From Candidatus Cloacimonadota bacterium (lineage in GTDB: Bacteria; Cloacimonadota; Cloacimonadia; G963667145): 64,000 bases of DNA. The position numbers and the translations under genes were made by a program. A model generated the notes under the pieces. The model was not told the DNA's origin. It ran no database searches and saw nothing but the letters and a program-made list of their open reading frames with translations. Within the stretch, counting starts at the first letter, position 1. Each line of letters opens with the position of its first letter. The DNA lies in assembly GCA_963676515.1 (NCBI GenBank), contig OY781061.1, forward strand, positions 660,776-724,775. Reading direction: 5' to 3'. Of this stretch, positions 1-52,610 are shown in pieces.

Positions 1-89
1 ACAAGGCGTGCGGTGAGCGGAAATGAGGGCTGGTGGTGTGCTTCCTTGCCTTGCTTCCCTCATCCCCGCGAAAGCGGGGATCCAAGGGC
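1..89. repeat. Tail of the 'BA' intergenic repeat unit (window-truncated copy). It reads acaaggcgtgcggtg...ctggtggtgtgcttccttgccttgcttccctcatccccgcgaaagcggggatccaagggc.
   Basis: Near-identical copies lie at 462-553, 40165-40253, 40870-40970 and 53330-53400. It contains a perfect 8-bp hairpin with a GAAA loop. Confidence 0.8.
62..81 (+). other. Hairpin ATCCCCGC-GAAA-GCGGGGAT (GNRA tetraloop), embedded in the BA repeat.
   Basis: Perfect 8-bp inverted repeat read directly from the sequence. Other copies lie at 527-546, 40221-40240, 40938-40957 and 53462-53481. Confidence 0.7.
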
Positions 90-350: not shown

Positions 351-553
351 TAAGCCCCTACCCATTGATAGCATCGTGTGGGAGAATGGATTCCCGCTTT
401 CGCGGGAATGAGGGCTGGTGGCGATGCGGAGCTGGTGGTGAATAAACATACTGGCGGGTGGTGACACAAGGCGTGCGGTGTGCAGCTATGAGGACTGGTG
501 GTGTGCTTTCTTGCCTTGCTTCCCTCATCCTCGCGAAAGCGGGGATCCAAGGG
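351..553. repeat. 'BA' repeat unit copy. It contains the TTCCCGC-TTTC-GCGGGAA palindrome and the GNRA hairpin.
   Basis: Shares cattgatagcatcgtgtgggagaatggattcccgc...gcgggaatgagggctggtgg...gaataaacatactgg...acaaggcgtgcggtg...ctcatcctcgcgaaagcggggatccaagggc with 40057-40253, 40661-40970 and 53205-53400. Confidence 0.8.
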
Positions 554-644: not shown

Positions 645-1646
645 TCATAATGAGGGCTGAGTGGAGGCAAATCGCCAGGTATCGATACAGATTTGCTCCA
701 TTGTCCGTTTCGCTTTCCAATGCAGGTCTTGCATTGCCTTGCTGGAGTCTGCATAGCAGATAGCAATGTCGCCTGCTCTTCTAGGCTCTATTTTGTAAGG
801 GACTTTAACTCCTACCGCTTTTTCAAAAGTTTTGACTATTTGCAAAACAGACACACCTTGCCCTGTGCCCAAATTGTAAGTGTGCAGCCCTACCCCAAGT
901 TTTTGCAATGCGGCCAAATGCCCATCTGCCAAATCACAGACATGGATATAATCTCTAACTCCAGTACCATCTATAGTTGGATAATCATCACCAAATATGT
1001 TCAGAGACTCTCGCCAACCAATAGCCACCTGCCATACATAGGGCATCAAATTATTCGGGATGCCTTGTGGCAATTCGCCTATCAGCCCACTCTCGTGCGA
1101 ACCTACAGGATTAAAATAACGCAACAGAACAACTGACATACCGGGGGAAGAGTTGACAAAGTCGGTCAAAATCCTCTCGCCCATAGCTTTTGTCTCTGCA
1201 TAGGGGTTGGTTGTTGGTAATAGATCCATAGTTTCGGACATCGGAGAAACATTGTCACCATAAACAGTTGCTGACGAGCTAAATACAATTTTATTTACCT
1301 TGAATTTGTGGCACATTTTAGCCACAACCAAAGTAGCATTCAAATTGTTCTTATAATATTTCAAAGGTTGCTCAACGGAGACCCCTACTGCCTTATAGCC
1401 AGCGAAATGGATTACTGCAGCGAAATTGTGCTTCTCAAAGACAGCTTCCATTCGGGCACTATCCGTAACATCCACTTTATAGAAAGTAGGTCTTTTGCTC
1501 GTGATTTGCTCTATATTGTCTATTACCTTTGCGTGGCTATTGCATAGATTGTCGACAATTACCACTTCATACCCAGCCTGCAAAAGCACCACCGCAGTAT
1601 GCGAACCTATATAGCCGGTACCACCGGTAACTAATATTTTGTTCAT
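645..1646 (-). CDS. galE: UDP-glucose 4-epimerase (GalE).
   Basis: 333 aa. N-terminus MNKILVTGGTGYIGSHT, an NAD-binding Rossmann motif. YxxxK and overall GalE-like sequence throughout. Confidence 0.85.
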   Translation of the reverse strand: MNKILVTGGTGYIGSHTAVVLLQAGYEVVIVDNLCNSHAKVIDNIEQITSKRPTFYKVDVTDSARMEAVFEKHNFAAVIHFAGYKAVGVSVEQPLKYYKNNLNATLVVAKMCHKFKVNKIVFSSSATVYGDNVSPMSETMDLLPTTNPYAETKAMGERILTDFVNSSPGMSVVLLRYFNPVGSHESGLIGELPQGIPNNLMPYVWQVAIGWRESLNIFGDDYPTIDGTGVRDYIHVCDLADGHLAALQKLGVGLHTYNLGTGQGVSVLQIVKTFEKAVGVKVPYKIEPRRAGDIAICYADSSKAMQDLHWKAKRTMEQICIDTWRFASTQPSL

Positions 1647-4749: not shown

Positions 4750-6795
4750 TCAATTTTTATCCAAGATTTCTACGAATCTGTTTTCAAGAAATTTCACAAC
4801 TTTCAAAGAACCAGTTTTAGATAAATGCCCTCCATCACTAAAATATATTTCATTATTCTTCTGTCTTAGACAAACTCCATCTTTGCAAAAAGCATCAGAA
4901 GGGTCAATAAAGATTATGTTCTCATTAGACTGAAAATAATCTTTTAAAAATTTATTAAATAAAATTCGATTATGCTTAAAAGTTGAAATTGTTGGAACAA
5001 GACCTAGTAAATATTTTGGACGAAGCAGCTTTTCTATATAATTCAATTCCGAACTGTTCGATGATGGTGTCTCTCCAATAATTATAAAGACTCTGTCAGA
5101 ACCTGACATATTATGAAATTCCCCAATCTTCCGAGCAATTATTTTCCATCCTGTGGAATCATTTTTAATTTTTTTGTATTTTTTCTCAAATTCATCCCAA
5201 GTTTCACATAAGGCAATTTGATCCACCCAAGAATGGCTTAAAATAACTATAGAAGAAGGATGATTATTAATAAACTCCAAATTCTCTTTAAATAGTTTTT
5301 TACTAGTCTCAGAATATCCATCTCTATCATTACGAATGATTTCAGGAAGTTTTAAAGTAGAAAACCAATTTGATATATATATATTCTGTCTATTTTTTTT
5401 AACCATAACTGAATCCAAACCATATAGATAATGTGCTGCATGAGAATCTCCTAACCAAATCATATCTGGCTCTATTCCCTCTTTTGGTTGTTTTCCTACC
5501 CACCCTACTTTATATCCTGCCCCCCCCCAATTATTTTTATGATAATCTTTAGGTACGCCAATCTTTTCTATAAGCACTAAATTCTCATCACTTAATCGCC
5601 ATAAGCACCCTTGAGCATAATTAACTTTTAGTTTAACAATATAAACAGATAAAATAGCAATAATAAGCATTAATAGTAGTGACCTATTCGATTTAATGCT
5701 AAACTTTGCTGTTTTATACCTTAAAGAATTTTCATAATATTTATAGATCAGCGATGAGAGCAAAATCATGACAACAAACATTGCTATTTGTTCCATTGGG
5801 TTAAATTCTCCATCAAAGAGGTAACGATAAAATACAATAACAACCCAGTGGATTAAATAGAGAGTATAACTTATTTCCCCAATATACCTTAGAAACTTAT
5901 TGTTAAAAATGAATTTCAGGTGTTTTGAGGGAGGAAATAACAAGAGTAAACCTGCTCCTATACATGGAAATAAATTAAGAGAACCTAAATAGGGCGTATT
6001 TTTGTTGAATATCATTGCAAAAGCAACAATCATAGTTAACCCTAATAAATTTAGGCTTAACTTAAAATATTCTGATTTTATTTTTTGCACTTGTACAAGT
6101 GCAATTATGCCTCCTATGAGAAACTCAAACATTCTAAAAGGAAGTAGGTAAAATTGTAATGAAGATACTCCTGATGAAATGTCACCTTTAGGAAGGAAGA
6201 AATTAGCAAAATTACTAGGCACGCCACATTTAGAAGTGTAAATTGTAATAAAAAGACTGAATGCAAATATAGCAGACATACTAATTATCACTCCCCTTTT
6301 CTTTTTTGAAAACAATTTCATTAAAAGAAGCAGTGTGACCGGATAAAGTAGATAAAATTGTTCTTCTATTCCTAAAGACCAGGTATGAAGCAACGGTTTA
6401 AAATGTGATGCAATATCAAAATAATCTGAGAGCCCTAAAAAATGAAAATTTGATAGAGCGACAGAACTCATAAACATTGATTTTGTTGCATTCATAAAGT
6501 CGGAAGGAGAAAACGCCAAAAATGTTAGAATGAATACTAAGGAAATTGTTAAAAAAAGGGTGGGCATGAGTCGCCTAACTCTACGAACATAAAAAGTCTT
6601 AAAATTGATTTTCCCAGTTTGCACAAATTCGTGATTCAACAATCTTGTAATTAAGAAACCACTTATCACAAAAAATACATCAACCCCTATAAATCCACCT
6701 TGGAATAGACTTAAATCAAGATGATATAAAACAACTAATAATACTGCTACTGCTCTTATTGAATCGATATGACTCAAATAACTCATTTTTTTCAT
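4750..6795 (-). CDS. Membrane acyltransferase-3 domain fused to a C-terminal SGNH hydrolase domain (OafA/OatA-like O-acetyltransferase).
   Basis: 681 aa. N-terminal multi-TM AT3 region (VLYHLDLS...GFIGVDVFFVISGFLITR). C-terminal GDSHAAH (SGNH) region. Confidence 0.75.
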   Translation of the reverse strand: MKKMSYLSHIDSIRAVAVLLVVLYHLDLSLFQGGFIGVDVFFVISGFLITRLLNHEFVQTGKINFKTFYVRRVRRLMPTLFLTISLVFILTFLAFSPSDFMNATKSMFMSSVALSNFHFLGLSDYFDIASHFKPLLHTWSLGIEEQFYLLYPVTLLLLMKLFSKKKRGVIISMSAIFAFSLFITIYTSKCGVPSNFANFFLPKGDISSGVSSLQFYLLPFRMFEFLIGGIIALVQVQKIKSEYFKLSLNLLGLTMIVAFAMIFNKNTPYLGSLNLFPCIGAGLLLLFPPSKHLKFIFNNKFLRYIGEISYTLYLIHWVVIVFYRYLFDGEFNPMEQIAMFVVMILLSSLIYKYYENSLRYKTAKFSIKSNRSLLLMLIIAILSVYIVKLKVNYAQGCLWRLSDENLVLIEKIGVPKDYHKNNWGGAGYKVGWVGKQPKEGIEPDMIWLGDSHAAHYLYGLDSVMVKKNRQNIYISNWFSTLKLPEIIRNDRDGYSETSKKLFKENLEFINNHPSSIVILSHSWVDQIALCETWDEFEKKYKKIKNDSTGWKIIARKIGEFHNMSGSDRVFIIIGETPSSNSSELNYIEKLLRPKYLLGLVPTISTFKHNRILFNKFLKDYFQSNENIIFIDPSDAFCKDGVCLRQKNNEIYFSDGGHLSKTGSLKVVKFLENRFVEILDKN
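5520..5528 (-). repeat. Homopolymeric C9 tract on the + strand (G9 on the coding strand) inside the acyltransferase CDS. Candidate slipped-strand phase-variation tract.
   Basis: Read directly: ctgc-ccccccccc-aatt. It encodes W-G-G-A (TGG GGG GGG GCA) at about codon 422. The flanking CDS is only ~30% GC. Confidence 0.7.
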
Positions 6796-6874
6796 TTATA
6801 TACCTAATTAACTAAGCTACATTTTTTTGGGAAAGTATTGTCTTAGCAATTCTTAGTATTTTCATTTTGTCCTC

Positions 6875-6902
6875 TTTCCCAAGCTTAGTAAGGCTTGGGA
6901 AA
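6875..6902. repeat. REP-like hairpin TTTCCCAAGC-ttagtaag-GCTTGGGAAA in the intergenic gap of the operon.
   Basis: Perfect 10-bp arms. The arms match the palindrome TTCCCAAGC..GCTTGGGAA in the 'C' spacer module at 40353-40374, 41069-41090, 52508-52529 and 53173-53194. Confidence 0.65.
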
Positions 6903-29236: not shown

Positions 29237-29255
29237 TTTTTATTCCTTATTTTTT

Positions 29256-29588
29256 TTATCGGCAAAACTGAAGATCCGCCTTAACTTCTTGGATTTCTTT
29301 GTGCAACTCGTTATACTCAAGTTCCTTAATTTGCAAAAAAGCTTTAGTTATTCTCATTTTTTCTGTTATCCCTATCGGTGTTAACACATAAAGATAATTA
29401 CTCTTATTATCACTTTCGGCAAAATTGTGTAGTTTTAGAAATCCTTTCTTCCCAAGTTCCTTAAGTAAAAAATTCACTTTGCCCAAACTGAAACCTAAGC
29501 TATGAGCTAAAGACCTTTGGTTATGGTGTGGCTCTCTTTCTATTGCACTCAAAACCTTATAACTATTTTCTATTTCATTCTTGTTCAT
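29256..29588 (-). CDS. Small winged-helix DNA-binding protein (MarR/PadR-like). First gene of the polysaccharide operon.
   Basis: 110 aa. HNQRSLAHSLGFSLGKVNFLLKELGKKGFL resembles a wHTH recognition helix plus wing. Function inferred only from position. Confidence 0.45.
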   Translation of the reverse strand: MNKNEIENSYKVLSAIEREPHHNQRSLAHSLGFSLGKVNFLLKELGKKGFLKLHNFAESDNKSNYLYVLTPIGITEKMRITKAFLQIKELEYNELHKEIQEVKADLQFCR

Positions 29589-29703
29589 GGGTTGAACGAA
29601 AAAGGAAAGTATTTAATGTCAATAAAAAGTCTTCATAATAAAAAATGAGAGCAAAGAAATCCTCCGCTTACTACCAGAACTCTCTGGATGGTAAATGCTG
29701 AAC

Positions 29704-29740
29704 ATAAAAAAAGTGGACACGAACTCTATCGTATCCACTT
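29704..29740 (-). terminator. Rho-independent terminator of giant gene 1 (module E variant).
   Basis: On the minus strand: AAGUGGAUACGAUAGAGUUCGUGUCCACUU followed by U7. Lies 30 bp past the stop codon. Confidence 0.75.
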
Positions 29741-29770
29741 CTTCTTTAAAATTTACTTTTCATATATAAT

Positions 29771-32700
29771 TTAAAAAGGTTTATAAGAATCCCACCATTT
29801 TTCAGCACCCAAGTCATAGTTAGCATACCTTTCTTCATCAAGACTAGTTAGCTTACTCTTCCAACCACTAAGGTTTATATTGAAAGCTTTAGCAAACATA
29901 AACATAGCACTCATCCATTCAACATTGCCTACATTCCAAGCAGAAATATTACCATTAAATTTCGTTGCCCCAGCAAACATATAATTCATATTGGTGACAC
30001 TGTCTACATCCCAAGAGTTTAAATCCTTATTAAAAGCTTTTGCTCCATCAAACATATAACTCATATTGGTAACGCTACTAACATCCCAGCCATTAATGTC
30101 GCCGTTAAACATGGTATCATTAAAAAACATAAAGCTCATATTTGTAACACTGCCTACTTCCCAAGAATTCAAATTCTGATTAAAAGTTTCTGCTCCGGAA
30201 AACATATGAAGCATATTTTCAACTTTACTTACATTCCAATTAGAAATATTACTATTAAATAAAATTGCATTAGAAAACATACCTTGCATAGTCTGCACAT
30301 TGCTCACATCCCAGCCACTGATATCCCCATTAAATTCCTTAGCTCCACTAAACATATAATTCATAATCGTTACATTGCTTACATCCCAGCCACTGATATC
30401 TTGATTGAATGTTGAATCACTACTAAATAAAGATTCCATATTAGTGATCCCAGCTGTATTGACCTGAGTGACATCATCGCGATCGGCTATCATAGCTTTC
30501 AAGGTGTTTAGCGTGATATATGTCGTGGCACTGTCGATACTGGAGAAAGCAGATTGCCCAGCGTCGCTATAAGCTGCTATTTTGTAGAAGCGTTTGCTGT
30601 TTTCACTGAGGCTGGTGATGCTGTAGTTGGAGACAAGCCCCACGGTTGTCGTGTCATAGCTCCCTTCACTACTGGTGGCTGTACACAGGTAATAACCTGT
30701 AGCTCCAGCGACTTCGCTCCAAGATATGTCTATTTGTGTAGGGCTCGCGGCACTATCGGACAAAATGGTAGGAGTAGCAACAATTGTGGTAACACTTACG
30801 CTATCAGAAAGACTGGATGTATCCACAGCGTTATAAGCTTGGATCTTGTAAAAATGCTTGGAGTTGGCATTAAGTCCTTTGTTTTGGTAAATGATGTCAT
30901 CAATATCACCGATTGGACTGAAATTTTCACCACTAGAGTCTGCATGATATATCGTGTATCCTTCTGCCCCGCTAACTTTGTCCCACGATATGTCTATTTG
31001 GGAAAAGCTCTTGGCTTCCGCAAAAACATTGGCAGGAGCGTTTACATTTATTTTCCCTATTACAACTGCAGAGAAATCGGATACACCGCGTCCATGATAG
31101 GATCGTACCTTGTAATAATACTCTGTGTCTGAATTGAGTCCCATGCTGCTGTAGAATGTATCGGTTCTAACAATTGAGTCGCCATAGTGCTCTCCATCGT
31201 CTGATATGTAGAGATAATAGCCATCTGCTCCCGCGGCTGTGCTCCACGATATTCTTATTTGGGAAGAGTCTACCGCACTCGCCTTTAGGTCAGCTGGAGC
31301 GGCGACAATCGTGGTGTCGCTCAATATGTCAGAGAAAACGCTGTAACCGTTGCCGTTGTAAGCCTTCAGCTTGTAAGTGTAGACTGTGTAAGCGGAAAGC
31401 CCTGTGTCGCTGTAAGAGTTGCTACTGATGTCGCCAACACTACCGTATTCTCCATTAGTGGTATCTAATCGATAAATCTTGTATCTGGCTGCTCCAGGGA
31501 CGGTGTCCCATCGCAAATCTATGCGTGATGCACTAACGACACTGCTCTCAAGATTGCTCGGAGCTAAGACGATTGTGGTGTCGCTTATTCCGCTGGAGAA
31601 CGCACTGTAACCGCTACCATTATAAGCCTTCACCTTGTAAAAGTACTCTGTGTTTGCGGCGAGTCCTGTGCTGTAATAAGTGGTGCTATTGGTGTCGCCG
31701 ATTGAAATGTAGTCTCCACTAATGGTATCTAATCGGTATATTGCATAGCTGGTTGCTCCAGCGACTGCGTGCCAACTCAGGTTTATCTGTGATGCACTCA
31801 CGACACTGTCGGTGAGATTCGTGGGAGACGCGACAATCGTGAAAATCCTCAATGTGTCGGAGAAATCACTATAGCCTTTCGTATTATGAGCACTCACTCT
31901 GTAGAAATACTTCGTGTTTGCAGTGAGACCTGTGTCGCTGTAGGTGGTGACATTCCCCAAAGTTGTGTCGCTGTATGTCCGCCCGCTGTCTACAGAGAAC
32001 GAGAGGCGATAGCCTGCCGCTCCATCTACTTCGCTCCATTTCAAATCTATGCGTGAAGCACTCACGACGCTGTCGGTGAGATTGCTCGGAGCTAAGACGA
32101 TTGTGGTGTCGCACAATATGTCGGAGAAGGCACTATTGCCTTTCCCGTTACGGGCTAACACCTTGTAGTAATGCACACTGTTTGCAGCGAGTCCTGTGTC
32201 GCTGTAGGAAGTGTCATTGCCAAGAATTGTGTCGCTGTAAGCAGTGCCATCTTCTGAGTAAGAGAGAGAATAGCTCGTTGCTCCATCGACTGTGTTCCAA
32301 AACAGCTTTATCTGTGATGAACTAATGACACTGTCGGTGAGGCTCTTAGGAGCATCAATAATCGTTGTGTCGCTCACGGTGTTCGAGAAAATACTGTAGC
32401 CGTTGTTATTATAAGCTAGTACCTTGTAGGAATAGACGGTGAAAGCGGAAAGCCCTGTGTCGCTGTAAGAATTGCTATTGGCAACACCAACACTGTCGTA
32501 GTCTCCACTAGTGGTATCTAATCGGTAAATCTTATAGCTGGCTGCTCCAGGAACGGTGTCCCATCGCAAATCTATGCGTGAAGCACTGACGACGCTGTCG
32601 ACAAGGTTAGCAGGAGCGGCAACGATTGTGGTGTCGCACAATATGTCGGAGAAGGCACTATTGCCTTTCCCGTTACGGGCTAACACCTTGTAGTAGTGCA

Positions 32701-35700
32701 CACTATTTGCAGTGAGTCCTGTGTGGCTATAGGTGGTGACATTGCCCAATGCTGTGTCGCTGTAGTTTGTGCCATCGCCTGAGTAAGAGAGAGAATAGCT
32801 CGTTGCTCCATCGACTGAGTTCCAAAACAGTTTTATCTGTGATGAACTAATGACACTGTCGGTGAGGCTCTTAGGAGCATCGACAATCGTGGTATCGCTC
32901 AATATGTCAGAGAATTCACTGTCGCCATTTCCATTGTAAGCTAAAACTTTGTAATAATGCACACTATTTGCAGCGAGTCCCTTGTCGCTGTAGGTGGTGA
33001 CATCCCCCAAAGTTGTGTCGCTGTATGTCCGCCCGCTGTCTATAGAGAACGCGAGGCGATAGCCTGTCGCTCCCTCTACTTCGCTCCATTTCAAATCTAT
33101 GCGTGACGCACTGACGACGCTGTCGGCTAGATTACTCGGAGCTGCGACGATTGTGGTGTCACTCAATGTGCCGGAGAATTCGCCAAAGCCTTTTGTATTA
33201 TAGGCTCGCACTTTGTAGAAATACTCTGTGTTTGCGGTGAGCCCTGTGCTGTAATAAGTGGTGCTATTGGTGTCGCCGATTGAAATATAGTCTCCACTAA
33301 TGGTATCTAATCGGTATATTGCATAGCTGGTTGCTCCAGCGACTGTGTTCCAAAACAGTTTTATCTGTGATGAGCTGATGACACTGTCGGTGAGGTTGCT
33401 CGGAGCATCGACCTTCGTGGTGTCGCTCAATGTGTCAGAGAATTTGCTTTCGCCGTTGTTATTATAAGCTAGTACCTTGTAGGAATAGACGGTGTAAGCG
33501 GAAAGCCCTTTGTCGCTGTAGGAGTTGATACTGGCAACGCCAACACTGTCGTATTTTTTACTAGTGGTGTCTAATCGGTAAATCTTGTAGCTGGCTGCTC
33601 CGGGGACGGTGTCCCATTTCAAATCTATCTGTGACGCACTCATGACACTGTCACTGAGGTTGCTCGGATGTGTGACGATTGTGGTGTCGCTTATTACGCT
33701 GGAGAACGCACCGAAGCCTTTTGTATTATAGGCTTGCACCTTGTAGAAATACTCTGTGTTTGCGGTGAGTCCTGTGCTCAGATAATTAGTTTCATTGGTT
33801 GCTCCGATTTTGTTGTCGCCTACATTTATAATTGTGTCCCTATAAATATAATAGCTATCTGCACCAGCGACTGTGTTCCAGTATAGATTTATCTGTGACT
33901 TACTCACGACACTGTCGGTGAGGTTGCTCGGAGCATCGACAATAGTGGTGTCGCTCAATATGTCAGAGAAAATACTATAGCCGTTGCCATTGTGAGCCTT
34001 CAGCTTGTAGAAGTAAGCTGTGTTAGCGGAGAGGTTTTCGATACTAAATGTGGTGCCATCTGTTGTTTCTTTTCGGTCATAATTTCCGCTTATAATTGTG
34101 TCTATATAAACGACATAGCCTGCCGCTCCCTCTACTTCGCTCCAGCTCAAATCTATGCGTGAAGCACTAACGACGCTGTCGGTGAGATTCCTTGGAGGTG
34201 CAACGATTGTGGTGTCGCACAATGTGCTAGAGAACTCTCCGTCGCCTTTGCCATTGTAGGCTAGCACTTTGTAGTAGTGCACGCTATTTGCGAAAAGTCC
34301 TGTGTCGCTGTAGAAAGTGTCGGTTGCCTCTTTCATTGAAGCATATGCTCCATCGCTGATTGTGTCCATGTAGACATAATAGCCAGATGCACCAGCGACT
34401 GTGTTCCAGAAAAGTTTTATCTGTGATGCACTGATGACACTGTCGGTGAGGTTGCTCGGAGCATCGACAATAGTGGTGTCGCTCAATATGTCAGAGATTT
34501 CACTGTCGCCATTGTTATTATAAGCTAGTACCTTGTAGGAATAGACGGTGTTCGCACTGAGGCTTTCGATACTAAAGACGGTGTCTTCTGCGTTCTCTTC
34601 TCGGGTATAGTTCCCATCTCCACTTGTGTCTATATAAACGACATAGCCTGCCGCTCCATCTACTTCGCTCCATTTCAAATCTATGCGTGAAGCACTCACG
34701 ACACTGTCGGTGAGATTGCTCGGAGCTAAGACGATTGTGGTGTCGCTTATTACGCTGGAGAACGCACCGAAGCCTTTTGTATTATAGGCTAGCACCTTGT
34801 AGAAATACTCTGTGTTTGCGGTGAGTCCTGTGCTCAGATAAATAGTGTCATCGGTTGCCCCGATTTTGTTGTCGCCTACATTTATAACTGTGTCCCTATA
34901 AATATAATAGCTATCTGCACCAGCGACTGTGTTCCAATATAGATTTATCTGTGACTTACTCACGACACTGTCGGTGAGGTTGCTCGGAGCGGCGACAATC
35001 GTGGTATCGCTCAATATGTCAGAGAATTCACTGTCGCCATTGTTATTATAAGCTAGTACCTTGTAGGAATAGACGGTGTAAGCGGATAGCCCTGTGTCGC
35101 TGTAGAAATTGCTACTGATGTCGCCAACACTACCGTATTCTCCATTAGTAGTATCTAATCGGTAAATCTTGTAGCTGGCTGCTCCAGGGACGGTGTCCCA
35201 TTGCAAATCTATGCGTGACGCACTGACGACGCTGTCGGTGAGATTGCTCGGATGTGTGACGATTGTGGTGTCGCTTATTACGCTGGAGAACGCACCGAAG
35301 CCTTTTGTATTATAGGCTTTCACCTTGTAGTAATGCACACTGTTTGCGGCGAGTCCTGTGTCGCTGTAGGTGGTGACATTGCCAAGAATTGTGTCGCTGT
35401 AAGCAGTGCCATCTTCTGAGTAAGAAAGAGAATAGCTCGTTGCACCAGCGACTGAGTTCCAATATAGATTTATCTGTGATTTACTCACGACACTGTCGGT
35501 GAGGTTGCTCGGAGCAGCAACCTTCGTGGTGTCGCTCACGGTTTTCGAGAAAATACTGTAGCCGTTGCCATTATAAGCCTTCAGCTTGTAAGAATAGACT
35601 GTGTAAGCAGTGAGACCTGTGTCGCTGTAGGTGGTGACATTCCCCAAAGTTGTGTCACTGTATGTCTGCCCGCTGTCTATAGAGAACGCGAGGCGATAGC

Positions 35701-38700
35701 CTGCCGCTCCCTCTACTTCGCTCCATTTCAAATCTATCTGTGACGCACTGACGACACTGTCGGTGAGATTTCTCGGAGCTAAGACGATTGTGGTGTCGCT
35801 CAGTACGCTAGAGAACTCTCCGTTGCCTTTGCCGTTGTAGGCTAGCACTTTGTAATAGTGCACACTATTTGCGGCGAGACCTGTGTCGCTGTAGGAAGTG
35901 TCATTGCCAAGAATTGTGTCGCTGTAAGCAGTGCCATCTTCTGAGTAAGAGAGAGAATAGCTCGTTGCTCCATCGACTGTGTTCCAGAACAGCTTTATCT
36001 GTGATGAACTAATGACACTGTCGGTGAGGCTCTTAGGAGCATCGACCTTCGTGGTGTCGCTCAATATGTCAGAGAATTCACTGTAGCCGTTGCCATTGTG
36101 AGCCTTCAGCTTGTAGAAGTAAGCTGTGTTAGCGGAGAGACCTGTGTCGCTGTAGGAGTTGATGCTGGCAACGCCAACACTGTCGTAACCTCCTCCAATG
36201 GTGGTATCTCTATAAATTGTGTAGCTGGCTGCTCCAGGGACGGTGTCCCATTGCAAATCTATGCGTGACGCACTCACGACACTGTCGGTGAGGTTGCTCG
36301 GATATGTGACGATTGTGGTGTCGCTTATTACGCTGGAGAACACACCGAAGCCTTTTGTATTATAGGCTTGCACCTTATAGAAATGCACACTATTTGCGAA
36401 AAGACCTGTGTGGCTGTAGGTGGTGACATTGCCCAATGCTGTGTCGCTATAGTTTGTGCCATCGCCTGAGTAAGAGAGAGAATAGCTCGTTGCACCAGCG
36501 ACTGAGTTCCAAAACAGTTTTATCTGTGATGAACTGATGACACTGTCGGTGAGGGTGCTCGGAGCGGCGACCATCGTGGTGTCGCTCAATATGTTAGAGA
36601 ATTCACTGTCGCCATTTCCGTTGTAAGCTAAAACTTTGTAGTAATGCACACTATTTGCAGCGAGTCCCTTGTCGCTGTAGGTGGTGACATCCCCCAAAGT
36701 TGTGTCGCTGTATGTCTGCCCGCTGTCTATAGAGAACGCGAGGCGATAGCCTTTCGCTCCATCAACTGCGTTCCATCTCAAATCTATTTGTGATGCACTA
36801 ACGACGCTGTCGGTGAGATTGCTCGGATGTGTGACGATTGTGGTGTCGCTCAGTGTGCTAGAGAACTCTCCGTTGCCTTTGCCATTGTAGGCTAGCACTT
36901 TGTAATAGTGCACGCTATTTGCGGCGAGTCCTGTGTCGCTGTAGGTGGTGACATTGCCCAATGCTGTGTCGCTGTAGTTTGTGCCATCGCCTGAGTAAGA
37001 GAGAGAATAGCCGTCTGCTCCAGCGACTGTGTTCCAGAAAAGTTTTATCTGTGATGCGCTGATGACACTGTCGGTGAGATTCTTAGGAGCATCAACCTTC
37101 GTGGTGTCAAATAATATGCCAGAAAATTCGCTATTACCGTTACCATTGTAAGCCTTTAGCTTGTAAGTGTAGACGGTGTAAGCGGAAAGGGCTGTGTCGC
37201 TGTAGGAGTTGATACTGGCAACGCCAACACTGTCGTATTTTTTACTAGTGGTATTTAATCGGTAAATCTTGTAGCTGGCTGCTCCGGGGACTGTGTCCCA
37301 TTGCAAATCTATGCGTGACGCACTCACGACACTGTCACTGAGGTTGCTCGGAGCGGCGACGATTGTGGTGTCGCTTACGATGCTAGAAGCTTTACTCTCT
37401 CCGACTGTATTATAAGCTGTCACTTTGTAGAAATATTCTGTGTTTGCGGCGAGACCTGTGTTGCAGTAGGAAGTGCTACTGGTGTCAACTAATAAGTTGT
37501 TGCTGCCTACATTTCCCGTTGTGTCCATGTAAACTCTATAGCGTTCTGCTCCTTCCACTTCGTCCCACGATATGTCGATTCGGGAAGAGCTTTTGGATTT
37601 GGCGGATACATTCGTCGGAGCAGCGACGATCGTGAAGAGACTCAATGTGTCGGAGTAATCACTATAGCCTTTGTAATTGTAGGCTCGCACTGTGTAGAAA
37701 TACTTCGTATTTGCGTTGAGACCTGTGCTGTAGTAGAAAGTGTCCGTGCCGACAGAGGTGTCTATATAAGTTCGCCCGCTGTCTATAGAGTAAGAGACAT
37801 AATAACATGATGCACCATCGACTGAGCTCCAGAACAAGTTTATTTGAGAAGAGTCTACGACACTATCGCAGAAATTGGCAGGAGCGGCGACCATAGTGGT
37901 GTCGCACAATGTGTCCGAGAAGCCAGATTCCCCTGCGTCACTATAAGCTGTGACTTTGTAGGTATAGCTTGTGAAAGCGGTGAGTCCTGTGTCATTGCAA
38001 GAAGTAACCTCGCCAATAAGCGTATGCTTGTAATCGGCACTACTTGGGGATGAGCGATATATTGTGTAGCCATCTGCTCCCTCGACTGAGTTCCAAGATA
38101 AATTTATTTGTGATGCACTGATGACAATGTCGGCGAGACCAGTCGGAGCTAAGACCTTTGTGGTGATGATCAATGTGTCGGAAAATTCACTGTCGCCGTT
38201 GCCATTGTAAGCTAGTATTTTATAGTAATATTTACTATTTGCCGTGAGACCTGTGTCGCTGTAGGAAGTGACCTTCTCGATTGCTGTGTCGCAATAGTTA
38301 TTGCCATCGTCTGCAGATATATAGAGGCGATAGCCTGCTGCTCCATCGACTGCGTCCCATTGCAAATCTATCTGAGAAAAGCTGACGACAGTATCGGAGA
38401 AACCAGCTGGAGGTGCGACGATGGTGGTGTCGCTTGCGATGTTAGCGTAATCTATATTACTACTACCAGCTTTGTTAAAAGCTATTACCTTGTAAAAATA
38501 CTCGGTGTTTGCGGCAAGCTCATTGCTACGATAAGCGGTGTCAGCGGTCTCTCCAATTTTGGTGTAAGTCCCATTACTAAAGTTTGGTGACATGAATACT
38601 CTGTAGCTATCTGCTCCACTGACTACATCCCAAGACAAATCTATCTCTGAGGCGCTTATGGATTTGGCTGTTAGGTTTTCAGGGTTAGTTACATGTATTC

Positions 38701-39847
38701 TTCCTTTTACGATTTGGGAAAACTCGGATGTGTCCACAGCGTTATAGGCTTTTATTTTATAATAATACATTGTATCTGCAGAGGCAACTTTATGACTGTA
38801 AGAGGTGACATTCTCAATAGTTGTAGGGGAATAATTATTGCCATCGTCTGAGATATAGAGGTAATAGCCTGCCGCTCCACAAGTTACAGTCCAAGACAAA
38901 CCTATCTGTGTCGAGTTCAGAACTCTAAGTGAGAGCCCTTCTGGATCCAAGAGTTTTACTCTCGATTTTACGGTGGCAGAAAAGTCTGAACTCCTAGAGG
39001 ATCTATAAGCTTTTAGTTTGTAGGAATATTCTATGTGTGGATCGGACACTGTGTCCGTGTAAAAGAGAACATTGCCGACATCTATCTGAGCGTAAGCCTC
39101 AATGCTGGCAGTATCTTTGTAGAGAGTGTAGCCATCGGCACCATCGACAGCATCCCACGACAAAAATATTTGTGAAATACTTACAGCTTTAGCGGCTAAA
39201 TTGCTGGGAGCTGCGACTATCGTGGTGTCACCTGCGATGTTGGAATATTCACTCTCACCACTTTCGTTATACGCTTTCACCTTATAGAAACAAGCTGTGT
39301 TTGCCTTGAGTCCTGTGTTACTATAAAAATTGCTGTTGACATTTCCAATAGGGTTGTAAGCTCCGCCCAGCGAAGATGATTTGTATATTCTGTAGTTTGC
39401 TTCTCCACTCACTGCGTTCCATGATAAATCTATTCGAGAAGAGCTTATAGCTTTTGCCGTTAGGTTGGTAGGAGTGGAAACAATCGTGATGGCACTTACG
39501 ATATCGGAAAATTCGCTATAACCATCAGCATTATAAGCTGTCACTTTGTAGTAATATTTTGTGTTTGCACTAAGCCCCGTGCTGGAACATAAATTGCTAC
39601 TGACATTGTTAATTTCGCTGTAATCTCCATCAAGAGCTGTTGCTTGGTGTACTTTATAACCTGTGGCTGTGCTCACGACATACCAAGACAAATCTATTTG
39701 CGAAGAATCTACGACAGTCGCCTCTAGATTGGTAGGAGCAGCTGGGAGAATCAGTTCCTCTGCATCGTCGTTTCCAGAAGGGCTGGTGCAGGTGACGAAA
39801 ATGACCAAGCTAAATATGATCGCTAAAAGTTTGAAACAATTCTTCAC
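29771..39847 (-). CDS. Giant surface lipoprotein. Signal peptide with lipobox, then about 30 tandem fibronectin-type-III-like modules, then a C-terminal block of 25-residue BspA/DUF285-type LRR repeats (~7 copies, 29771-30500).
   Basis: ORF 29771-39880 in the track. A GTG at 39847 is preferred as the start. It is preceded by AGAGGA 7 nt upstream and gives MKNCFKLLAIIFSLVIFVTC, parallel to paralog 2 (MKNWLKILVIIFSSVVFVTC). The repeats carry FN3 hallmarks (P-x-L...W...Y-x-[VI]-Y...Y-x-Y-x-V-x-A-x-N). The C-terminus is FNQDISGWDVSNVTIMNYMFSGA x7. Confidence 0.8.
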   Translation of the reverse strand: MKNCFKLLAIIFSLVIFVTCTSPSGNDDAEELILPAAPTNLEATVVDSSQIDLSWYVVSTATGYKVHQATALDGDYSEINNVSSNLCSSTGLSANTKYYYKVTAYNADGYSEFSDIVSAITIVSTPTNLTAKAISSSRIDLSWNAVSGEANYRIYKSSSLGGAYNPIGNVNSNFYSNTGLKANTACFYKVKAYNESGESEYSNIAGDTTIVAAPSNLAAKAVSISQIFLSWDAVDGADGYTLYKDTASIEAYAQIDVGNVLFYTDTVSDPHIEYSYKLKAYRSSRSSDFSATVKSRVKLLDPEGLSLRVLNSTQIGLSWTVTCGAAGYYLYISDDGNNYSPTTIENVTSYSHKVASADTMYYYKIKAYNAVDTSEFSQIVKGRIHVTNPENLTAKSISASEIDLSWDVVSGADSYRVFMSPNFSNGTYTKIGETADTAYRSNELAANTEYFYKVIAFNKAGSSNIDYANIASDTTIVAPPAGFSDTVVSFSQIDLQWDAVDGAAGYRLYISADDGNNYCDTAIEKVTSYSDTGLTANSKYYYKILAYNGNGDSEFSDTLIITTKVLAPTGLADIVISASQINLSWNSVEGADGYTIYRSSPSSADYKHTLIGEVTSCNDTGLTAFTSYTYKVTAYSDAGESGFSDTLCDTTMVAAPANFCDSVVDSSQINLFWSSVDGASCYYVSYSIDSGRTYIDTSVGTDTFYYSTGLNANTKYFYTVRAYNYKGYSDYSDTLSLFTIVAAPTNVSAKSKSSSRIDISWDEVEGAERYRVYMDTTGNVGSNNLLVDTSSTSYCNTGLAANTEYFYKVTAYNTVGESKASSIVSDTTIVAAPSNLSDSVVSASRIDLQWDTVPGAASYKIYRLNTTSKKYDSVGVASINSYSDTALSAYTVYTYKLKAYNGNGNSEFSGILFDTTKVDAPKNLTDSVISASQIKLFWNTVAGADGYSLSYSGDGTNYSDTALGNVTTYSDTGLAANSVHYYKVLAYNGKGNGEFSSTLSDTTIVTHPSNLTDSVVSASQIDLRWNAVDGAKGYRLAFSIDSGQTYSDTTLGDVTTYSDKGLAANSVHYYKVLAYNGNGDSEFSNILSDTTMVAAPSTLTDSVISSSQIKLFWNSVAGATSYSLSYSGDGTNYSDTALGNVTTYSHTGLFANSVHFYKVQAYNTKGFGVFSSVISDTTIVTYPSNLTDSVVSASRIDLQWDTVPGAASYTIYRDTTIGGGYDSVGVASINSYSDTGLSANTAYFYKLKAHNGNGYSEFSDILSDTTKVDAPKSLTDSVISSSQIKLFWNTVDGATSYSLSYSEDGTAYSDTILGNDTSYSDTGLAANSVHYYKVLAYNGKGNGEFSSVLSDTTIVLAPRNLTDSVVSASQIDLKWSEVEGAAGYRLAFSIDSGQTYSDTTLGNVTTYSDTGLTAYTVYSYKLKAYNGNGYSIFSKTVSDTTKVAAPSNLTDSVVSKSQINLYWNSVAGATSYSLSYSEDGTAYSDTILGNVTTYSDTGLAANSVHYYKVKAYNTKGFGAFSSVISDTTIVTHPSNLTDSVVSASRIDLQWDTVPGAASYKIYRLDTTNGEYGSVGDISSNFYSDTGLSAYTVYSYKVLAYNNNGDSEFSDILSDTTIVAAPSNLTDSVVSKSQINLYWNTVAGADSYYIYRDTVINVGDNKIGATDDTIYLSTGLTANTEYFYKVLAYNTKGFGAFSSVISDTTIVLAPSNLTDSVVSASRIDLKWSEVDGAAGYVVYIDTSGDGNYTREENAEDTVFSIESLSANTVYSYKVLAYNNNGDSEISDILSDTTIVDAPSNLTDSVISASQIKLFWNTVAGASGYYVYMDTISDGAYASMKEATDTFYSDTGLFANSVHYYKVLAYNGKGDGEFSSTLCDTTIVAPPRNLTDSVVSASRIDLSWSEVEGAAGYVVYIDTIISGNYDRKETTDGTTFSIENLSANTAYFYKLKAHNGNGYSIFSDILSDTTIVDAPSNLTDSVVSKSQINLYWNTVAGADSYYIYRDTIINVGDNKIGATNETNYLSTGLTANTEYFYKVQAYNTKGFGAFSSVISDTTIVTHPSNLSDSVMSASQIDLKWDTVPGAASYKIYRLDTTSKKYDSVGVASINSYSDKGLSAYTVYSYKVLAYNNNGESKFSDTLSDTTKVDAPSNLTDSVISSSQIKLFWNTVAGATSYAIYRLDTISGDYISIGDTNSTTYYSTGLTANTEYFYKVRAYNTKGFGEFSGTLSDTTIVAAPSNLADSVVSASRIDLKWSEVEGATGYRLAFSIDSGRTYSDTTLGDVTTYSDKGLAANSVHYYKVLAYNGNGDSEFSDILSDTTIVDAPKSLTDSVISSSQIKLFWNSVDGATSYSLSYSGDGTNYSDTALGNVTTYSHTGLTANSVHYYKVLARNGKGNSAFSDILCDTTIVAAPANLVDSVVSASRIDLRWDTVPGAASYKIYRLDTTSGDYDSVGVANSNSYSDTGLSAFTVYSYKVLAYNNNGYSIFSNTVSDTTIIDAPKSLTDSVISSSQIKLFWNTVDGATSYSLSYSEDGTAYSDTILGNDTSYSDTGLAANSVHYYKVLARNGKGNSAFSDILCDTTIVLAPSNLTDSVVSASRIDLKWSEVDGAAGYRLSFSVDSGRTYSDTTLGNVTTYSDTGLTANTKYFYRVSAHNTKGYSDFSDTLRIFTIVASPTNLTDSVVSASQINLSWHAVAGATSYAIYRLDTISGDYISIGDTNSTTYYSTGLAANTEYFYKVKAYNGSGYSAFSSGISDTTIVLAPSNLESSVVSASRIDLRWDTVPGAARYKIYRLDTTNGEYGSVGDISSNSYSDTGLSAYTVYTYKLKAYNGNGYSVFSDILSDTTIVAAPADLKASAVDSSQIRISWSTAAGADGYYLYISDDGEHYGDSIVRTDTFYSSMGLNSDTEYYYKVRSYHGRGVSDFSAVVIGKINVNAPANVFAEAKSFSQIDISWDKVSGAEGYTIYHADSSGENFSPIGDIDDIIYQNKGLNANSKHFYKIQAYNAVDTSSLSDSVSVTTIVATPTILSDSAASPTQIDISWSEVAGATGYYLCTATSSEGSYDTTTVGLVSNYSITSLSENSKRFYKIAAYSDAGQSAFSSIDSATTYITLNTLKAMIADRDDVTQVNTAGITNMESLFSSDSTFNQDISGWDVSNVTIMNYMFSGAKEFNGDISGWDVSNVQTMQGMFSNAILFNSNISNWNVSKVENMLHMFSGAETFNQNLNSWEVGSVTNMSFMFFNDTMFNGDINGWDVSSVTNMSYMFDGAKAFNKDLNSWDVDSVTNMNYMFAGATKFNGNISAWNVGNVEWMSAMFMFAKAFNINLSGWKSKLTSLDEERYANYDLGAEKWWDSYKPF

Positions 39848-39914
39848 TTTTATTCCTCTATTTCCAAAACAATTTCCCAAATAATGTCAACTTTGTTACA
39901 CTTTTGGAATTTGT

Positions 39915-39922
39915 CAAATATA
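39915..39922 (-). promoter_or_regulatory. Candidate promoter element TATATTTG(ACAA) (minus strand), 68 bp upstream of the giant gene 1 start.
   Basis: The same TA(A/T)ATTTGACAA motif sits at an equivalent distance (66 bp) upstream of giant gene 2 (52193-52200). It matches the TAnnTTTG (-7) consensus of Bacteroidota and also contains a TTGACA hexamer. Confidence 0.35.
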
Positions 39923-40056
39923 GTTATGGATTTTTAACTGAAAAATCAAAACAAGTTTGAAAGAGCAGAGCAAAAGTGTCTAGGATTTGGGGTTCATATC
40001 AGGATGTAAGGAAACAGAAACCGCAGATAGACACAGATGACTACAGATGACTGCCC

Positions 40057-40253
40057 CTTTTGTGCATCGTGTGGGAGAATGGATTCCCGCTTCCGCGGGA
40101 ATGAGGGCTGGGTGGCGATGCAGAGCTGGTGGTGAATAAACATACTGGCTGATGAAGGCACAAGGCGTGCGGTGTGCAGGAATGGGGACTGGTGGTGTGC
40201 TTCCTTGCCTTGCTTGCCTCATCCTCGCGAAAGCGGGGATCCAAGGGCGGGTG
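40057..40253. repeat. 'BA' repeat unit copy.
   Basis: Contains the TTCCCGC-TTCC-GCGGGAA palindrome, two Chi-like GCTGGTGG octamers and the GNRA hairpin at 40221-40240. Confidence 0.8.
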
Positions 40254-40384
40254 TAAACACCAGCAGAAATTTTGCGTCTTCAGCGTGCGAGGTAGGTTTA
40301 GATTTTAGATTTCGGCTTTGGTTTTTTGACTGTATGCTTTGTTTCGTATGCATTCCCAAGCTGGAGCTTGGGAACGAGGGGAAA
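40254..40384. repeat. 'C' repeat module copy.
   Basis: cagcagaaattttgcgtcttc...tttgactgtatgctttgtttcgtatgcaTTCCCAAGCTGGAGCTTGGGAAcgagggg. Copies lie at 40971-41099 and 52410-52530, with a variant at 53040-53200. Confidence 0.8.
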
Positions 40385-40414
40385 TCCCTCTGATAAGAGA
40401 AGATACCTGCTTTT

Positions 40415-40639
40415 TAGCTTTCAGCTGGACTCCATCTTTTCTTTGAACGCTCAACGAAAAGATAGAGGAGAAAAGAAAACCGCTCCGCTTCAATCCGCCA
40501 GAGAGATGGCGTGAGGTGTGTAGGCTGTCCGTGGTGGAGAGCACCTCCGATATTTGTTCTTAGCTGTGCATTTTCAATTGCTGGCATTGCAGTGCCATAG
40601 ATAAAGGTCTGTGTCTCTGGCTCTGCCCGTGAAGCGGAG
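40415..40639. repeat. Repeat module 'D', copy 2.
   Basis: About 90% identical to 128-350. Confidence 0.8.
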
Positions 40640-40660
40640 AAATTCCCCATCCTAGCTAGC

Positions 40661-40970
40661 AGGTAAGACCGCCCTTCCCTACCCATTGATAGCATCGTGT
40701 GGGAGAATGGATTCCCGCTTCCGCGGGAATGAGGGCTGGTGGCGATGCAGAGCTGGTGGTGAATAAACATACTGGCTGATGAAGGCACAAGGCGTGTGGT
40801 GTGCAGGAATGGGGACTGGAGGGAACACAGAGGAGACAGTAACCGCAGATGGACACAGATGAGGGCGGGTGGTGACACAAGGCGTGCGGTGTGCAGGAAT
40901 GGGGACTGGTGGTGTGCTTCCTTGCCTTGCTTGCCTCATCCTCGCGAAAGCGGGGATCCAAGGGCGGGTG
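40661..40970. repeat. 'BA' repeat unit copy with an internal ~48-bp partial duplication (40821-40868).
   Basis: Aligns to 40057-40253 except for the inserted segment gggaacacagaggagacagtaaccgcagatggacacagatgagggcgggtggtgac, which is itself related to 40012-40050. Confidence 0.75.
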
Positions 40971-41099
40971 CTAAACACCAGCAGAAATTTTGCGTCTTCG
41001 GCGTGCGGATCGTTTAGAATTTAGCTTACAGCTTTGGTTTTTTGACTGTATGCTTTGTTTCGTATGCATTCCCAAGCTGGAGCTTGGGAACGAGGGGAA
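40971..41099. repeat. 'C' repeat module copy.
   Basis: Aligns to 40254-40384. Palindrome at 41069-41090. Confidence 0.8.
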
Positions 41100-41137
41100 A
41101 AAAATCCTTGCTGCCCAAACAGAAATGAACGAAGCAT

Positions 41138-41173
41138 AAAAAAAGTGAACACGGTCTCTAGTCGTATCCACTT
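41138..41173 (-). terminator. Rho-independent terminator of giant gene 2 (module E).
   Basis: Hairpin agtgaacacggtctctagtcgtatccact with an A7 run on the + strand (U-tract on the minus strand), about 20 bp past the stop codon. Near-identical copy at 53567-53603. Confidence 0.75.
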
Positions 41174-41192
41174 CTTCTTCTAAATTTAAAAT

Positions 41193-52127: not shown

Positions 52128-52192
52128 TTTTTCCTTCTCTTTTTAAAAAAATCCCAAGTTAAGTTCCACAGTACTAGACTTTTAAAAGTTGT

Positions 52193-52200
52193 CAAATTTA
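52193..52200 (-). promoter_or_regulatory. Candidate promoter element TAAATTTG(ACAA), 66 bp upstream of the giant gene 2 start.
   Basis: Shared motif and spacing with 39915-39922. Confidence 0.35.
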
Positions 52201-52309
52201 GAAGTAATTTTTTCTCTAAAAAAGACAAAAATGAGCTTGGAATTTCACTGAAAAAAAGAAAAGAGGATTTTATTCACAAATAAAAAATAGTAGTTAAAAT
52301 GGGACACCG

Positions 52310-52390
52310 CCCTTTCCTGCCCATTGAAGGCATCGTGTGGGGGAATGGATTCCCGCTTCCGCGGGAATGAGGGCTGGTGGGAACGCAAGG
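52310..52390. repeat. Head fragment of the 'BA' unit.
   Basis: cattgaaggcatcgtgtgggggaatggattcccgcttccgcgggaatgagggctggtgg. Confidence 0.7.
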
Positions 52391-52409
52391 CGAGTGGTGA
52401 GCGGAGAAC

Positions 52410-52530
52410 TGTAGAGACGCAAAATTTTGCGTCTTCGGTGTGCGGGGTTGGTTTAGAATTTAGCTTTCGACTTTGGTATTTTGACTGTATGCTTTGTTTC
52501 GTATGCATTCCCAAGCTGGAGCTTGGGAAC
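52410..52530. repeat. 'C' repeat module copy.
   Basis: Contains an 18-bp perfect palindrome GACGCAAAATTTTGCGTC (52416-52433) and TTCCCAAGCTGGAGCTTGGGAA (52508-52529). Confidence 0.8.
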
Positions 52531-52544
52531 GAGGGGAAAGGGGA

Positions 52545-52610
52545 CTGCCCTGCCCTGCCCCTTTTGTGCATCGTGTGGGAGAATGGATTCCCGCTTCCGC
52601 GGGAATGAGG
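52545..52610. repeat. Head fragment of the 'BA' unit.
   Basis: ctgccctgccccttttgtgcatcgtgtgggagaatggattcccgcttccgcgggaatgagg. Confidence 0.7.

Follow-up and report, generated by a model that had tools for sequence, protein, structure and literature searches.

A palindromic DNA repeat, probably of the NTS/SRM/dRS3 family, borders the modules of NIME-like arrays beside giant genes in a Candidatus Cloacimonadota bacterium

Introduction

The 28-nt Neisseria transformation sequence (NTS), CGTCATTCCCGCGMAVGCGGGAATCYRG, is bound by SsnA, a 94-aa single-domain GIY-YIG protein (cd10448) that cuts a few nucleotides upstream of it; the substrate must be single-stranded DNA (ssDNA) of the forward strand, and RNA is neither bound nor cut (Chenal et al., Nat Commun 2025, PMC11893778). 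Binding by SsnA depends most on the C right after the palindrome, and cleavage on the three nucleotides upstream; binding and cleavage confined to forward-strand ssDNA are known for four pairs of Ssn proteins and motifs (PMC11893778). The original NTS search tolerated one mismatch, and a degenerate Ssn-related motif (SRM) was found to cluster around genes and to flank ssnA homologs across phyla (PMC11893778). The dRS3 repeat of neisserial intergenic mosaic elements (NIMEs) flanks repeat units of ~50–150 bp (range 19–214 bp) beside variable surface-protein genes; arrays of NIMEs have been proposed to promote recombination (PMC1797815).

Here, we describe a recurrent hairpin in a 64-kb stretch of DNA from a Candidatus Cloacimonadota bacterium (the whole analysed stretch is called the window below). 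A first-pass annotation of the window had read this hairpin as a structured RNA expressed from the plus strand. We conclude that it is probably a palindromic DNA repeat of the NTS/SRM/dRS3 family, which borders the modules of NIME-like arrays and whose forward strand, folded as an ssDNA hairpin, would be cut by an Ssn nuclease.

Two mirrored hairpin types and a hybrid

All five hairpins listed by the first-pass annotation, with the general form ATCCYCGC-GRAA-GCGGGGAT, are present on the plus strand. The copy at 62–81 reads ATCCCCGCGAAAGCGGGGAT (ATCCCCGC-GAAA-GCGGGGAT), those at 527–546, 40221–40240, and 40938–40957 read ATCCTCGCGAAAGCGGGGAT (ATCCTCGC-GAAA-GCGGGGAT), and the one at 53462–53481 reads ATCCTCGCGGAAGCGGGGAT (ATCCTCGC-GGAA-GCGGGGAT). 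The annotation was also right that a single copy, that at 62–81, has a C-G pair where the other four have T opposite G. It overlooked six mirrored copies (plus-strand starts at 390, 40083, 40711, 52349, 52587, and 53253), which read ATTCCCGCTTYCGCGGGAAT on the plus strand (ATTCCCGC-TTYC-GCGGGAAT) and ATTCCCGC-GRAA-GCGGGAAT on the minus strand, as well as a hybrid copy at 53391–53410 (ATCCTCGC-GTAA-GCGGGAAT) that combines a C/A mismatch with the T.G pair. A search with the degenerate hairpin pattern, allowing up to three mismatches, gave 13 matches in the window compared with 0.01 expected from shuffled sequences.

Copies of the listed type (R) lie on the plus strand within CCCTCAT-stem-loop-stem-ATCCA, while the mirrored type (L) forms an inverted repeat of 27–28 nt, TGGAT-...-ATGAGGG. 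The two stems differ at pair 3, which is T-A in L and C-G in R (a compensated change), and at pair 5, where L has C and R has T; L copies form perfect stems on both strands. The oriented flanks CCTCAT-stem-loop-stem-ATCC, including the C directly after the palindrome, are present in 11 of the 12 copies, the hybrid lacking that C. In the forward orientation (from CCTCAT to ATCCA), six copies lie on the plus strand and six on the minus strand (n = 12). The copies with their flanks are the following:

57–84, plus strand: R hairpin, the sole copy with a perfect C-G at pair 5 (CCCTCATCCCCGCGAAAGCGGGGATCCA)
387–414, minus strand: L hairpin, TGGATTCCCGCTTTCGCGGGAATGAGGG on the plus strand and CCCTCATTCCCGCGAAAGCGGGAATCCA on the minus strand; an exact dRS3 that agrees with the NTS of N. 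meningitidis at 26/28 positions
522–549, plus strand: the R hairpin in focus here, CCCTCAT-CCTCGC-GAAA-GCGGGG-ATCCA; right end of unit 387–549, forward on the plus strand
40080–40107, minus strand: L hairpin, loop GGAA, in forward orientation on this strand; left end of unit 40080–40243
40216–40243, plus strand: R hairpin; right end of unit 40080–40243
40708–40735, minus strand: L hairpin; left end of unit 40708–40960
40933–40960, plus strand: R hairpin, tandem-duplicate partner of 40216–40243; right end of the interrupted unit 40708–40960
52346–52373, minus strand: L hairpin with just ~30 nt of the unit interior after it (52346–52400)
52584–52610, minus strand: solitary L hairpin; unrelated sequence begins right after ...GGGAATGAGG, a module border
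53250–53277, minus strand: L hairpin; left end of unit 53250–53410
53386–53416, no strand assigned: hybrid hairpin CCCTCAT-CCTCGC-GTAA-GCGGGA-ATGAGGG, with an R-type 5' arm and an L-type 3' arm and flank
53457–53484, plus strand: R hairpin, loop GGAA; closes the short unit 53403–53484 on the right

With its mixed flanks, the hybrid folds on either strand into an imperfect stem of 13 bp. The copies are not independent of one another, since those at 40221 and 40938 lie inside a 717-bp tandem duplication and extended flanks are common to all; thus, the four copies with T probably represent one inherited variant.

Hairpins border the modules of three mosaic arrays

All 12 hairpins are confined to three intergenic arrays that adjoin the giant genes of the window:

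1–644, no strand assigned: mosaic array I, downstream of a galE-like gene (645–1646, minus strand); extends past the window start
39881–41192, no strand assigned: mosaic array II, between the giant genes 29771–39880 and 41193–52127 (both minus strand); holds the 717-bp tandem duplication
52128–53612, no strand assigned: mosaic array III, between the giant genes 41193–52127 and 53613–63992 (both minus strand)

The three giant genes form a tandem on the minus strand and encode proteins of 3369, 3644, and 3459 aa of the fn3/DUF285 type, the first with ~23 fn3 domains plus DUF285. The remainder of the window is a surface-polysaccharide cluster, and neither a transposase nor a nuclease or cas gene was detected in the 64 kb. 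No hairpin was found in the intergenic gaps of this 28-kb cluster (645–29236) or in the gap at 29237–29770. Within the window, the repeat therefore displays a feature that we took as a mark of family membership, namely many copies clustered in intergenic regions near particular genes.

Pairs of L and R hairpins enclose a repeat unit, for which the following copy served as reference:

40080–40243, no strand assigned: 164-nt unit with a GGTGG-rich interior of ~110 nt between an L and an R hairpin

The L and R hairpins of this unit are inverted repeats of 27–28 nt with their CCTCAT sides facing inward. Other full copies are located at 387–549 (92% identical to the reference) and 53250–53410 (97%), and an interrupted copy (40708–40822 plus 40876–40960, 97–100% identical) carries a 53-bp insert between its halves. 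Partial copies are found at 1–84, 565–622, 52346–52400, and 53403–53484. Between the hairpins, modules measure ~45–640 nt, with start-to-start spacings of 72–666 nt. Sequence continuity is lost at the hairpins or no more than ~6 nt from them, as at 52610/52611 or in the divergent continuations after each R copy, and the hairpins are thus the borders of the modules. The units are 92–100% identical to one another, whereas the first two giant paralogs share only 53% identity at the protein level, which places the spread or homogenisation of the repeats after the duplication of the genes. A separate palindrome, headed by GTAG, lies at 52410–52437.

Relationship to NTS, SRM, and dRS3

Read on the minus strand, the six L copies differ from the NTS at only 2–3 positions (25–26 of 28 identical), giving six matches at up to three mismatches compared with 0.00 expected. 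R copies are identical to the NTS at 23 of 28 positions, which leaves five mismatches for the copy at 522–549, and no copy in the window qualifies at the limit of one mismatch. The published SRM pattern, HGTCWYN(0-2)YYVSBRHN(0-5)WNVSBRGN(0-2)RNCYNB, has no match in the window, because position 2 is C and not G in these copies; after relaxing position 2 to S and the last base to N, we obtained six matches compared with 0.37 in shuffled sequences. The 20-bp inverted repeat of dRS3, ATTCCCNNNNNNNNGGGAAT (ATTCCC-N8-GGGAAT), has six exact matches (0.01 expected), which are the L copies, while the R copy at 522–549 (ATCCTC...GGGGAT) does not fit it. By sequence, the hairpins of the window are members of this repeat family.

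Conservation of the stem across genomes

We scanned one genome per species (185,579 species) with the pattern CCTCATNCNCGCNNNNGCGNGNATCCA, in which pair 3, pair 5, and the loop were left free. At least 115 loci in many phyla matched; among the matches listed are loci from Neisseria, many other Pseudomonadota, Dehalococcoidia, Planctomycetota, Bacteroidota, Cloacimonadota, Armatimonadota, Elusimicrobia, and others. The nearest repeat relatives come from Cloacimonadota MAGs (L010/L100 and L051). What other genomes share is the hairpin and not the unit interior. The 164-nt unit had no match in a plasmid BLAST search, and its interior (ACAAGGCGTGYGGTGTGCAG) matched two loci in a metagenome scan, which lack further similarity and are chance matches.

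Among the matches listed, free pair 3 is T-A in 64, C-G in 30, A-T in 14, G-C in 13, and not Watson–Crick in 11, and free pair 5 is C-G in 110, T.G in 14, and C.A in 3. The scan pattern fixed part of the stem, and the matches are not phylogenetically independent. To control for the bias of the pattern, we searched the same loci again by their flanks only ([CG]TCAT-N16-ATCC). Six of six inner pairs were Watson–Crick in 36 of the 60 unselected copies, and ~15 of the copies look like background. Several of the 36 have doubly compensated stems (CCGGC/GCCGG, CCTGC/GCAGG, CCAGC/GCTGG, and CCCAC/GTGGG), and CGTCAT and CCTCAT forms occurred together in the same loci. In 103 distinct sequences, the named structure was paired at 90%, compared with 23–46% when the partner was slid. 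Compensatory changes were found at six stem pairs, with 76 cells changed on both sides compared with 21.7 in shuffles (0/500 shuffles). This compensatory covariation across genomes indicates that the stem is selected.

The first-pass annotation had proposed a selected hairpin that functions on the plus strand. Its view of selection agrees with the covariation, and its view that the wobble orients the hairpin agrees with the excess of T.G over C.A. A hand tally of genomes gave 10–11 with T.G and 3 with C.A (one-sided p ~0.03–0.05, for matches that are not independent), and this excess suggests that folding takes place on the forward strand. The assignment to the plus strand of the window is not supported, with six forward copies on either strand. 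The wobble argument is chemically right, but it is true of ssDNA too: folded as ssDNA, the T-containing hairpin reaches −6.4 kcal/mol on the plus strand and −4.9 kcal/mol on the minus strand.

Association with Ssn-like genes

In other genomes, CCTCAT hairpins are found near Ssn-like genes that encode proteins of 95–99 aa with PF01541 as the only domain. The Ssn-like gene of locus L037 lies between inverted CCTCAT hairpins and is accompanied by the exact T.G subtype, CCTCATCCTCGCGAAGGCGGGGATCCA. The same arrangement is seen at L118, whose protein is 78% identical to that of L037, and at L086 (Dehalococcoidia), whereas the gene at L047 has one CCTCAT hairpin ~130 nt downstream. Homologs with ~60% identity to the L037 protein, at L122 and L123, are flanked by TGTCAT hairpins of the strict SRM form. 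Judged from these gene neighbourhoods, the variant with C for G is a genuine Ssn-associated form, and it includes a T.G subtype that spans phyla. In at least three other lineages, this variant flanks Ssn-like genes on both sides; the published SRM pattern misses it, and censuses of Ssn target repeats are therefore probably underestimates. The hairpins around ssn genes have their CCTCAT sides facing outward, opposite to those of the 164-nt unit.

Within the 64-kb window, neither a GIY-YIG gene nor a remnant of one was detected by tblastn and a motif regex, including in the intervals of 300–460 bp from R to L hairpins. As no ssn gene lies in the window, the enzymatic step, with a cognate Ssn in this organism and any cleavage or recombination at the locus, is inferred.

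Proposed mechanism and alternative explanations

The preferred reading, that of a palindromic DNA repeat of the NTS/SRM/dRS3 family, would work as follows. Whenever the DNA becomes single-stranded, be it in replication, DNA uptake, or repair, the forward strand would take up the hairpin fold. It would then be recognised, through stem sequence and flanks, by a small Ssn-family nuclease with a single GIY-YIG domain, which would nick it a few nucleotides 5' of the motif. In this way, the arrays would become hot spots for recombination, rearrangement, or ssDNA restriction around the giant genes. Several points speak against this reading: the window lacks GIY-YIG, transposase, nuclease, and cas genes, the published SRM pattern has no match there owing to a change among the upstream nucleotides to which SsnA cleavage is sensitive, and the unit interior was not found in the plasmid and metagenome collections scanned.

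A bolder version, which we put forward tentatively and regard as unlikely, is that an Ssn-bracketed mobile unit (hairpin-ssn-hairpin) gave rise to the inverted-hairpin doublets and the arrays as non-autonomous derivatives, which the cognate GIY-YIG ssDNA nuclease moves or homogenises around the giant adhesin-like genes. The ATCCTCGC...GCGGGGAT subtype with its conserved G.T wobble might then be the specificity determinant of one Ssn clade. If true, this would be a GIY-YIG-driven counterpart of REPIN/RAYT in a non-Neisseria anaerobe, promoting surface-protein diversification.

It is quite unlikely that the 164-nt unit is a non-autonomous element like a MITE or REPIN, moved in trans by a RAYT/IS200-like or IS110/Piv-like enzyme or by Ssn. 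Near-perfect inverted termini, and four full and four partial copies with 92–100% identity in three arrays next to far more diverged genes, are what such an element might leave behind. Moreover, in other genomes inverted hairpins of this kind enclose Ssn-like genes much as in an insertion sequence, and the idea of a mobile unit has been raised before (PMC11893778). However, the outer flanks (CATCGTGTGGGAGAA and AGGGC) are identical in all unit copies, which thus show neither separate insertion sites nor target-site duplications; a classical MITE that makes such duplications was rejected on this ground. Further points against an element of this kind are the opposite facing of the CCTCAT sides in the unit and around ssn genes, the absence of the unit interior from the plasmid and metagenome collections scanned, the sharing of hairpins but not interiors with other genomes, and the 64-kb window itself, in which we found no transposase.

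The structured RNA of the first-pass annotation, a small RNA or cis-regulatory element transcribed from the plus strand antisense to the giant genes and carrying a GNRA-capped 8-bp hairpin, is in our view very unlikely. The T.G pair of the R copies does pair only on the plus strand, T.G outnumbers C.A on the forward strand among the matches listed (14 vs. 3), and the forward-strand loops in the window are all GNRA. The six mirrored copies, however, place the forward GRAA hairpin on the minus strand, and because the forward orientation is found six times on each strand, the argument from GNRA loop and wobble applies equally to the sense strand. The claim that the loop varies only within GNRA does not extend to the family either, where loops are GAAA in 48, GAAG in 22, and GCAG in 22 cases and GNRA in 56 of 132 (42%) among the matches listed. 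Furthermore, GCGNNAGC, the core of the window hairpins, is an extraordinarily stable DNA mini-hairpin motif (PMC13037366); the GNRA-like loop is thus no argument for RNA.

Folding of the full unit points both ways. As RNA, the 164-nt unit folds well on the plus strand (−76.6 kcal/mol, z −4.2) but equally well on the minus strand (z −4.0), and in both folds L pairs with R, replacing the local hairpins. The Rfam 15 covariance models gave no match in the whole window at the gathering score and only chance-level matches in the three arrays at E ≤ 1. Array II has no more promoter-like or terminator-like sites than shuffled sequences, and none of them adjoins a hairpin. Stem changes that stay uncompensated, which the annotation itself had held would speak against its reading, do occur: the C/A mismatch of the hybrid at 53391–53410 is one. 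SsnA, finally, binds the NTS as ssDNA and does not interact with NTS RNA (PMC11893778). The antisense-RNA reading was most likely a false lead, which is now removed.

We consider it highly improbable that the hairpins serve as transcription terminators or as REP-like 3' hairpins that stabilise the mRNAs of the minus-strand genes. In position, the arrays do follow immediately on the stop codons of galE (645) and two giant genes (41193 and 53613), and the L hairpins are perfect on the sense strand. Yet no copy is followed by a run of T/U on either strand, the only site returned by a terminator scan of array II is unrelated and below the shuffle expectation, and the hairpins occur in both orientations with several copies per array.

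The hairpins are almost certainly not a degenerate CRISPR array: the stem, CCCCGCG...CGCGGGGAT, may resemble the type I-E repeat of E. coli, which is the sole point in favour, and the array reading is refuted by the architecture, with irregular spacing (72–666 nt), both orientations, and intervening "spacers" that are themselves repeated, in a 64-kb window devoid of cas genes.

Implications and comparison with known systems

With the hairpin read as a DNA repeat of the NTS/SRM/dRS3 family, NIME-like arrays of NTS/dRS3 type, long held to be a peculiarity of Neisseria, occur in a distant lineage as well, where they bracket giant surface-protein genes. Should this organism encode a cognate nuclease, its arrays would provide a natural test case of Ssn/hairpin systems outside naturally competent pathogens.

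Among described systems, GNRA-tetraloop RNA hairpins resemble the window repeat in the C-G-closed GAAA or GGAA loop on an 8-bp stem but differ in that the loop of the repeat's family is not conserved as GNRA. REP/BIME sequences and REPIN-RAYT systems have in common with it that they are short extragenic palindromes, often inverted doublets that fold into one long hairpin, and are recognised as ssDNA. In contrast to these, the window hairpin has no 5' tetranucleotide of the GTAG type, its 5' flank being CCTCAT, and the enzyme associated with hairpins of this type is a GIY-YIG protein and not an HUH/Y1 transposase; no RAYT or Y1/HUH gene was found in the 64-kb window.

The dRS3/NIME system is matched in its architecture, with inverted repeats bounding modules in arrays that lie beside surface-protein genes and are more dynamic than these genes. 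The differences are that half of the window hairpins (R type, ATCCYC...GGGGAT) fail the strict dRS3 pattern and that the modules are few in kind and interspersed with other palindromes, while NIMEs have been described as Neisseria-specific. Compared with NTS/SRM, the window copies carry C instead of G three nucleotides before the palindrome, where SsnA cleavage is sensitive to the nucleotides present, and the R copies have C-G at pair 3 and the T.G wobble at pair 5. The likeness to NTS/SRM comprises the stem core ATTCCCGCG..CGCGGGAAT, the flanks with TCAT upstream and C followed by C/T after the palindrome, and the occurrence in multiple copies that cluster by particular genes and are identical to the NTS at 23–26 of 28 positions.

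Ssn-like genes bracketed by CCTCAT hairpins

The CCTCAT-type hairpins are found in other genomes bracketing Ssn-like genes, which encode relatives of the small GIY-YIG nucleases known to cut NTS hairpins as ssDNA, and they escape the published search pattern for the Ssn-related motif (SRM; HGTCWY...). Three loci have this arrangement:

L037, 7132-7556: Ssn-like gene bracketed by CCTCAT hairpins, uncultured proteobacterial MAG
L086, 686-1151: Ssn-like gene bracketed by CCTCAT hairpins, Dehalococcoidia MAG
L118, 2941-3330: Ssn-like gene bracketed by CCTCAT hairpins, metagenome contig

Homologs ~60% identical to the L037 protein (L122, L123) are bracketed by TGTCAT hairpins, and the -3 nucleotide, the third base before the palindrome, may co-vary with the Ssn clade. 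At the Dehalococcoidia locus (L086, OZ243973.1), the Ssn-like gene adjoins ~118-bp tandem units, each ending in CCTCATGCCCGCGAAAGCGGGCATCCA, at 1100-1400 and 6100-6900. The many matches that this genome yielded in the species-genome scan indicate a large motif expansion.

The subtype with T opposite G at stem pair 5, ATCCTCGC...GCGGGGAT, is seen in the R copies of the window (forward on the + strand) and recurs across several phyla, in no fewer than eight further genomes (L016, L021, L024, L037, L047, L062, L082, and L084). Among the matches listed, T.G at pair 5 occurs in 9 of 30 copies with a C-G pair 3 vs. 3 of 64 with T-A. Such conservation of a G.T wobble within hairpin DNA could reflect a role in recognition, or the subtype could represent a lineage that spread horizontally.

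Other palindromes in the arrays

A second palindromic repeat, TTCCCAAGC-TGGA-GCTTGGGAA, has four exact copies in the window (0.00 expected) and is not matched by the SRM pattern. Its minus-strand reading, CCTCGT-TCCCAAGC-TCCA-GCTTGGGA-ATGC, has a layout identical to that of the CCTCAT hairpin, of which it may be a diverged relative.

40353-40374, 41069-41090, 52508-52529, 53173-53194: second palindromic repeat
52410-52437: GTAG-headed palindrome, GTAGAGACGC-AAAATTTT-GCGTCTTC

Similar GTAGAGACGC...GCGTCT hairpins are carried by a Cloacimonadales MAG (L010, 7838-7865 and 7884-7908). The REP-like look of the window copy (GTAG plus palindrome) hints at a separate RAYT-type repeat family within the same arrays.

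Giant genes and array composition

The arrays lie beside three paralogous giant genes in tandem, adjoined by a 28-kb polysaccharide biosynthesis cluster (645-29236). Giant genes 1 and 2 share 53% identity across 3142 aa, and the products are probably cell-surface proteins.

29771-39880, minus strand: giant gene 1, 3369 aa, ~23 fn3 domains, with DUF285 (BspA-like) repeats at the C-terminus
41193-52127, minus strand: giant gene 2, 3644 aa
53613-63992, minus strand: giant gene 3, 3459 aa

In array II, the L-to-R repeat unit 40708-40960 is split by a 53-bp insert (40823-40875). A 32-nt repeat, AGGARACAGWAACCGCAGATRGACACAGATGA, is present both in this insert and near the array start (40009-40040). 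Array III contains a ~430-bp stretch (52611-53046) that is unique within the window, having no convincing ORF, Rfam match, or repeat partner there. Arrays I and II have in common a conserved ~300-bp module (at 85-386 and 40414-40700, respectively) containing an AT-rich hairpin, CTCCATCTTTTC...GAAAAGATAGAG; tblastn found no GIY-YIG remnant in this module, and an Rfam search gave no match. The module extends from an R hairpin to the next L hairpin, the same polarity as that of the hairpins bracketing ssn genes in other genomes.
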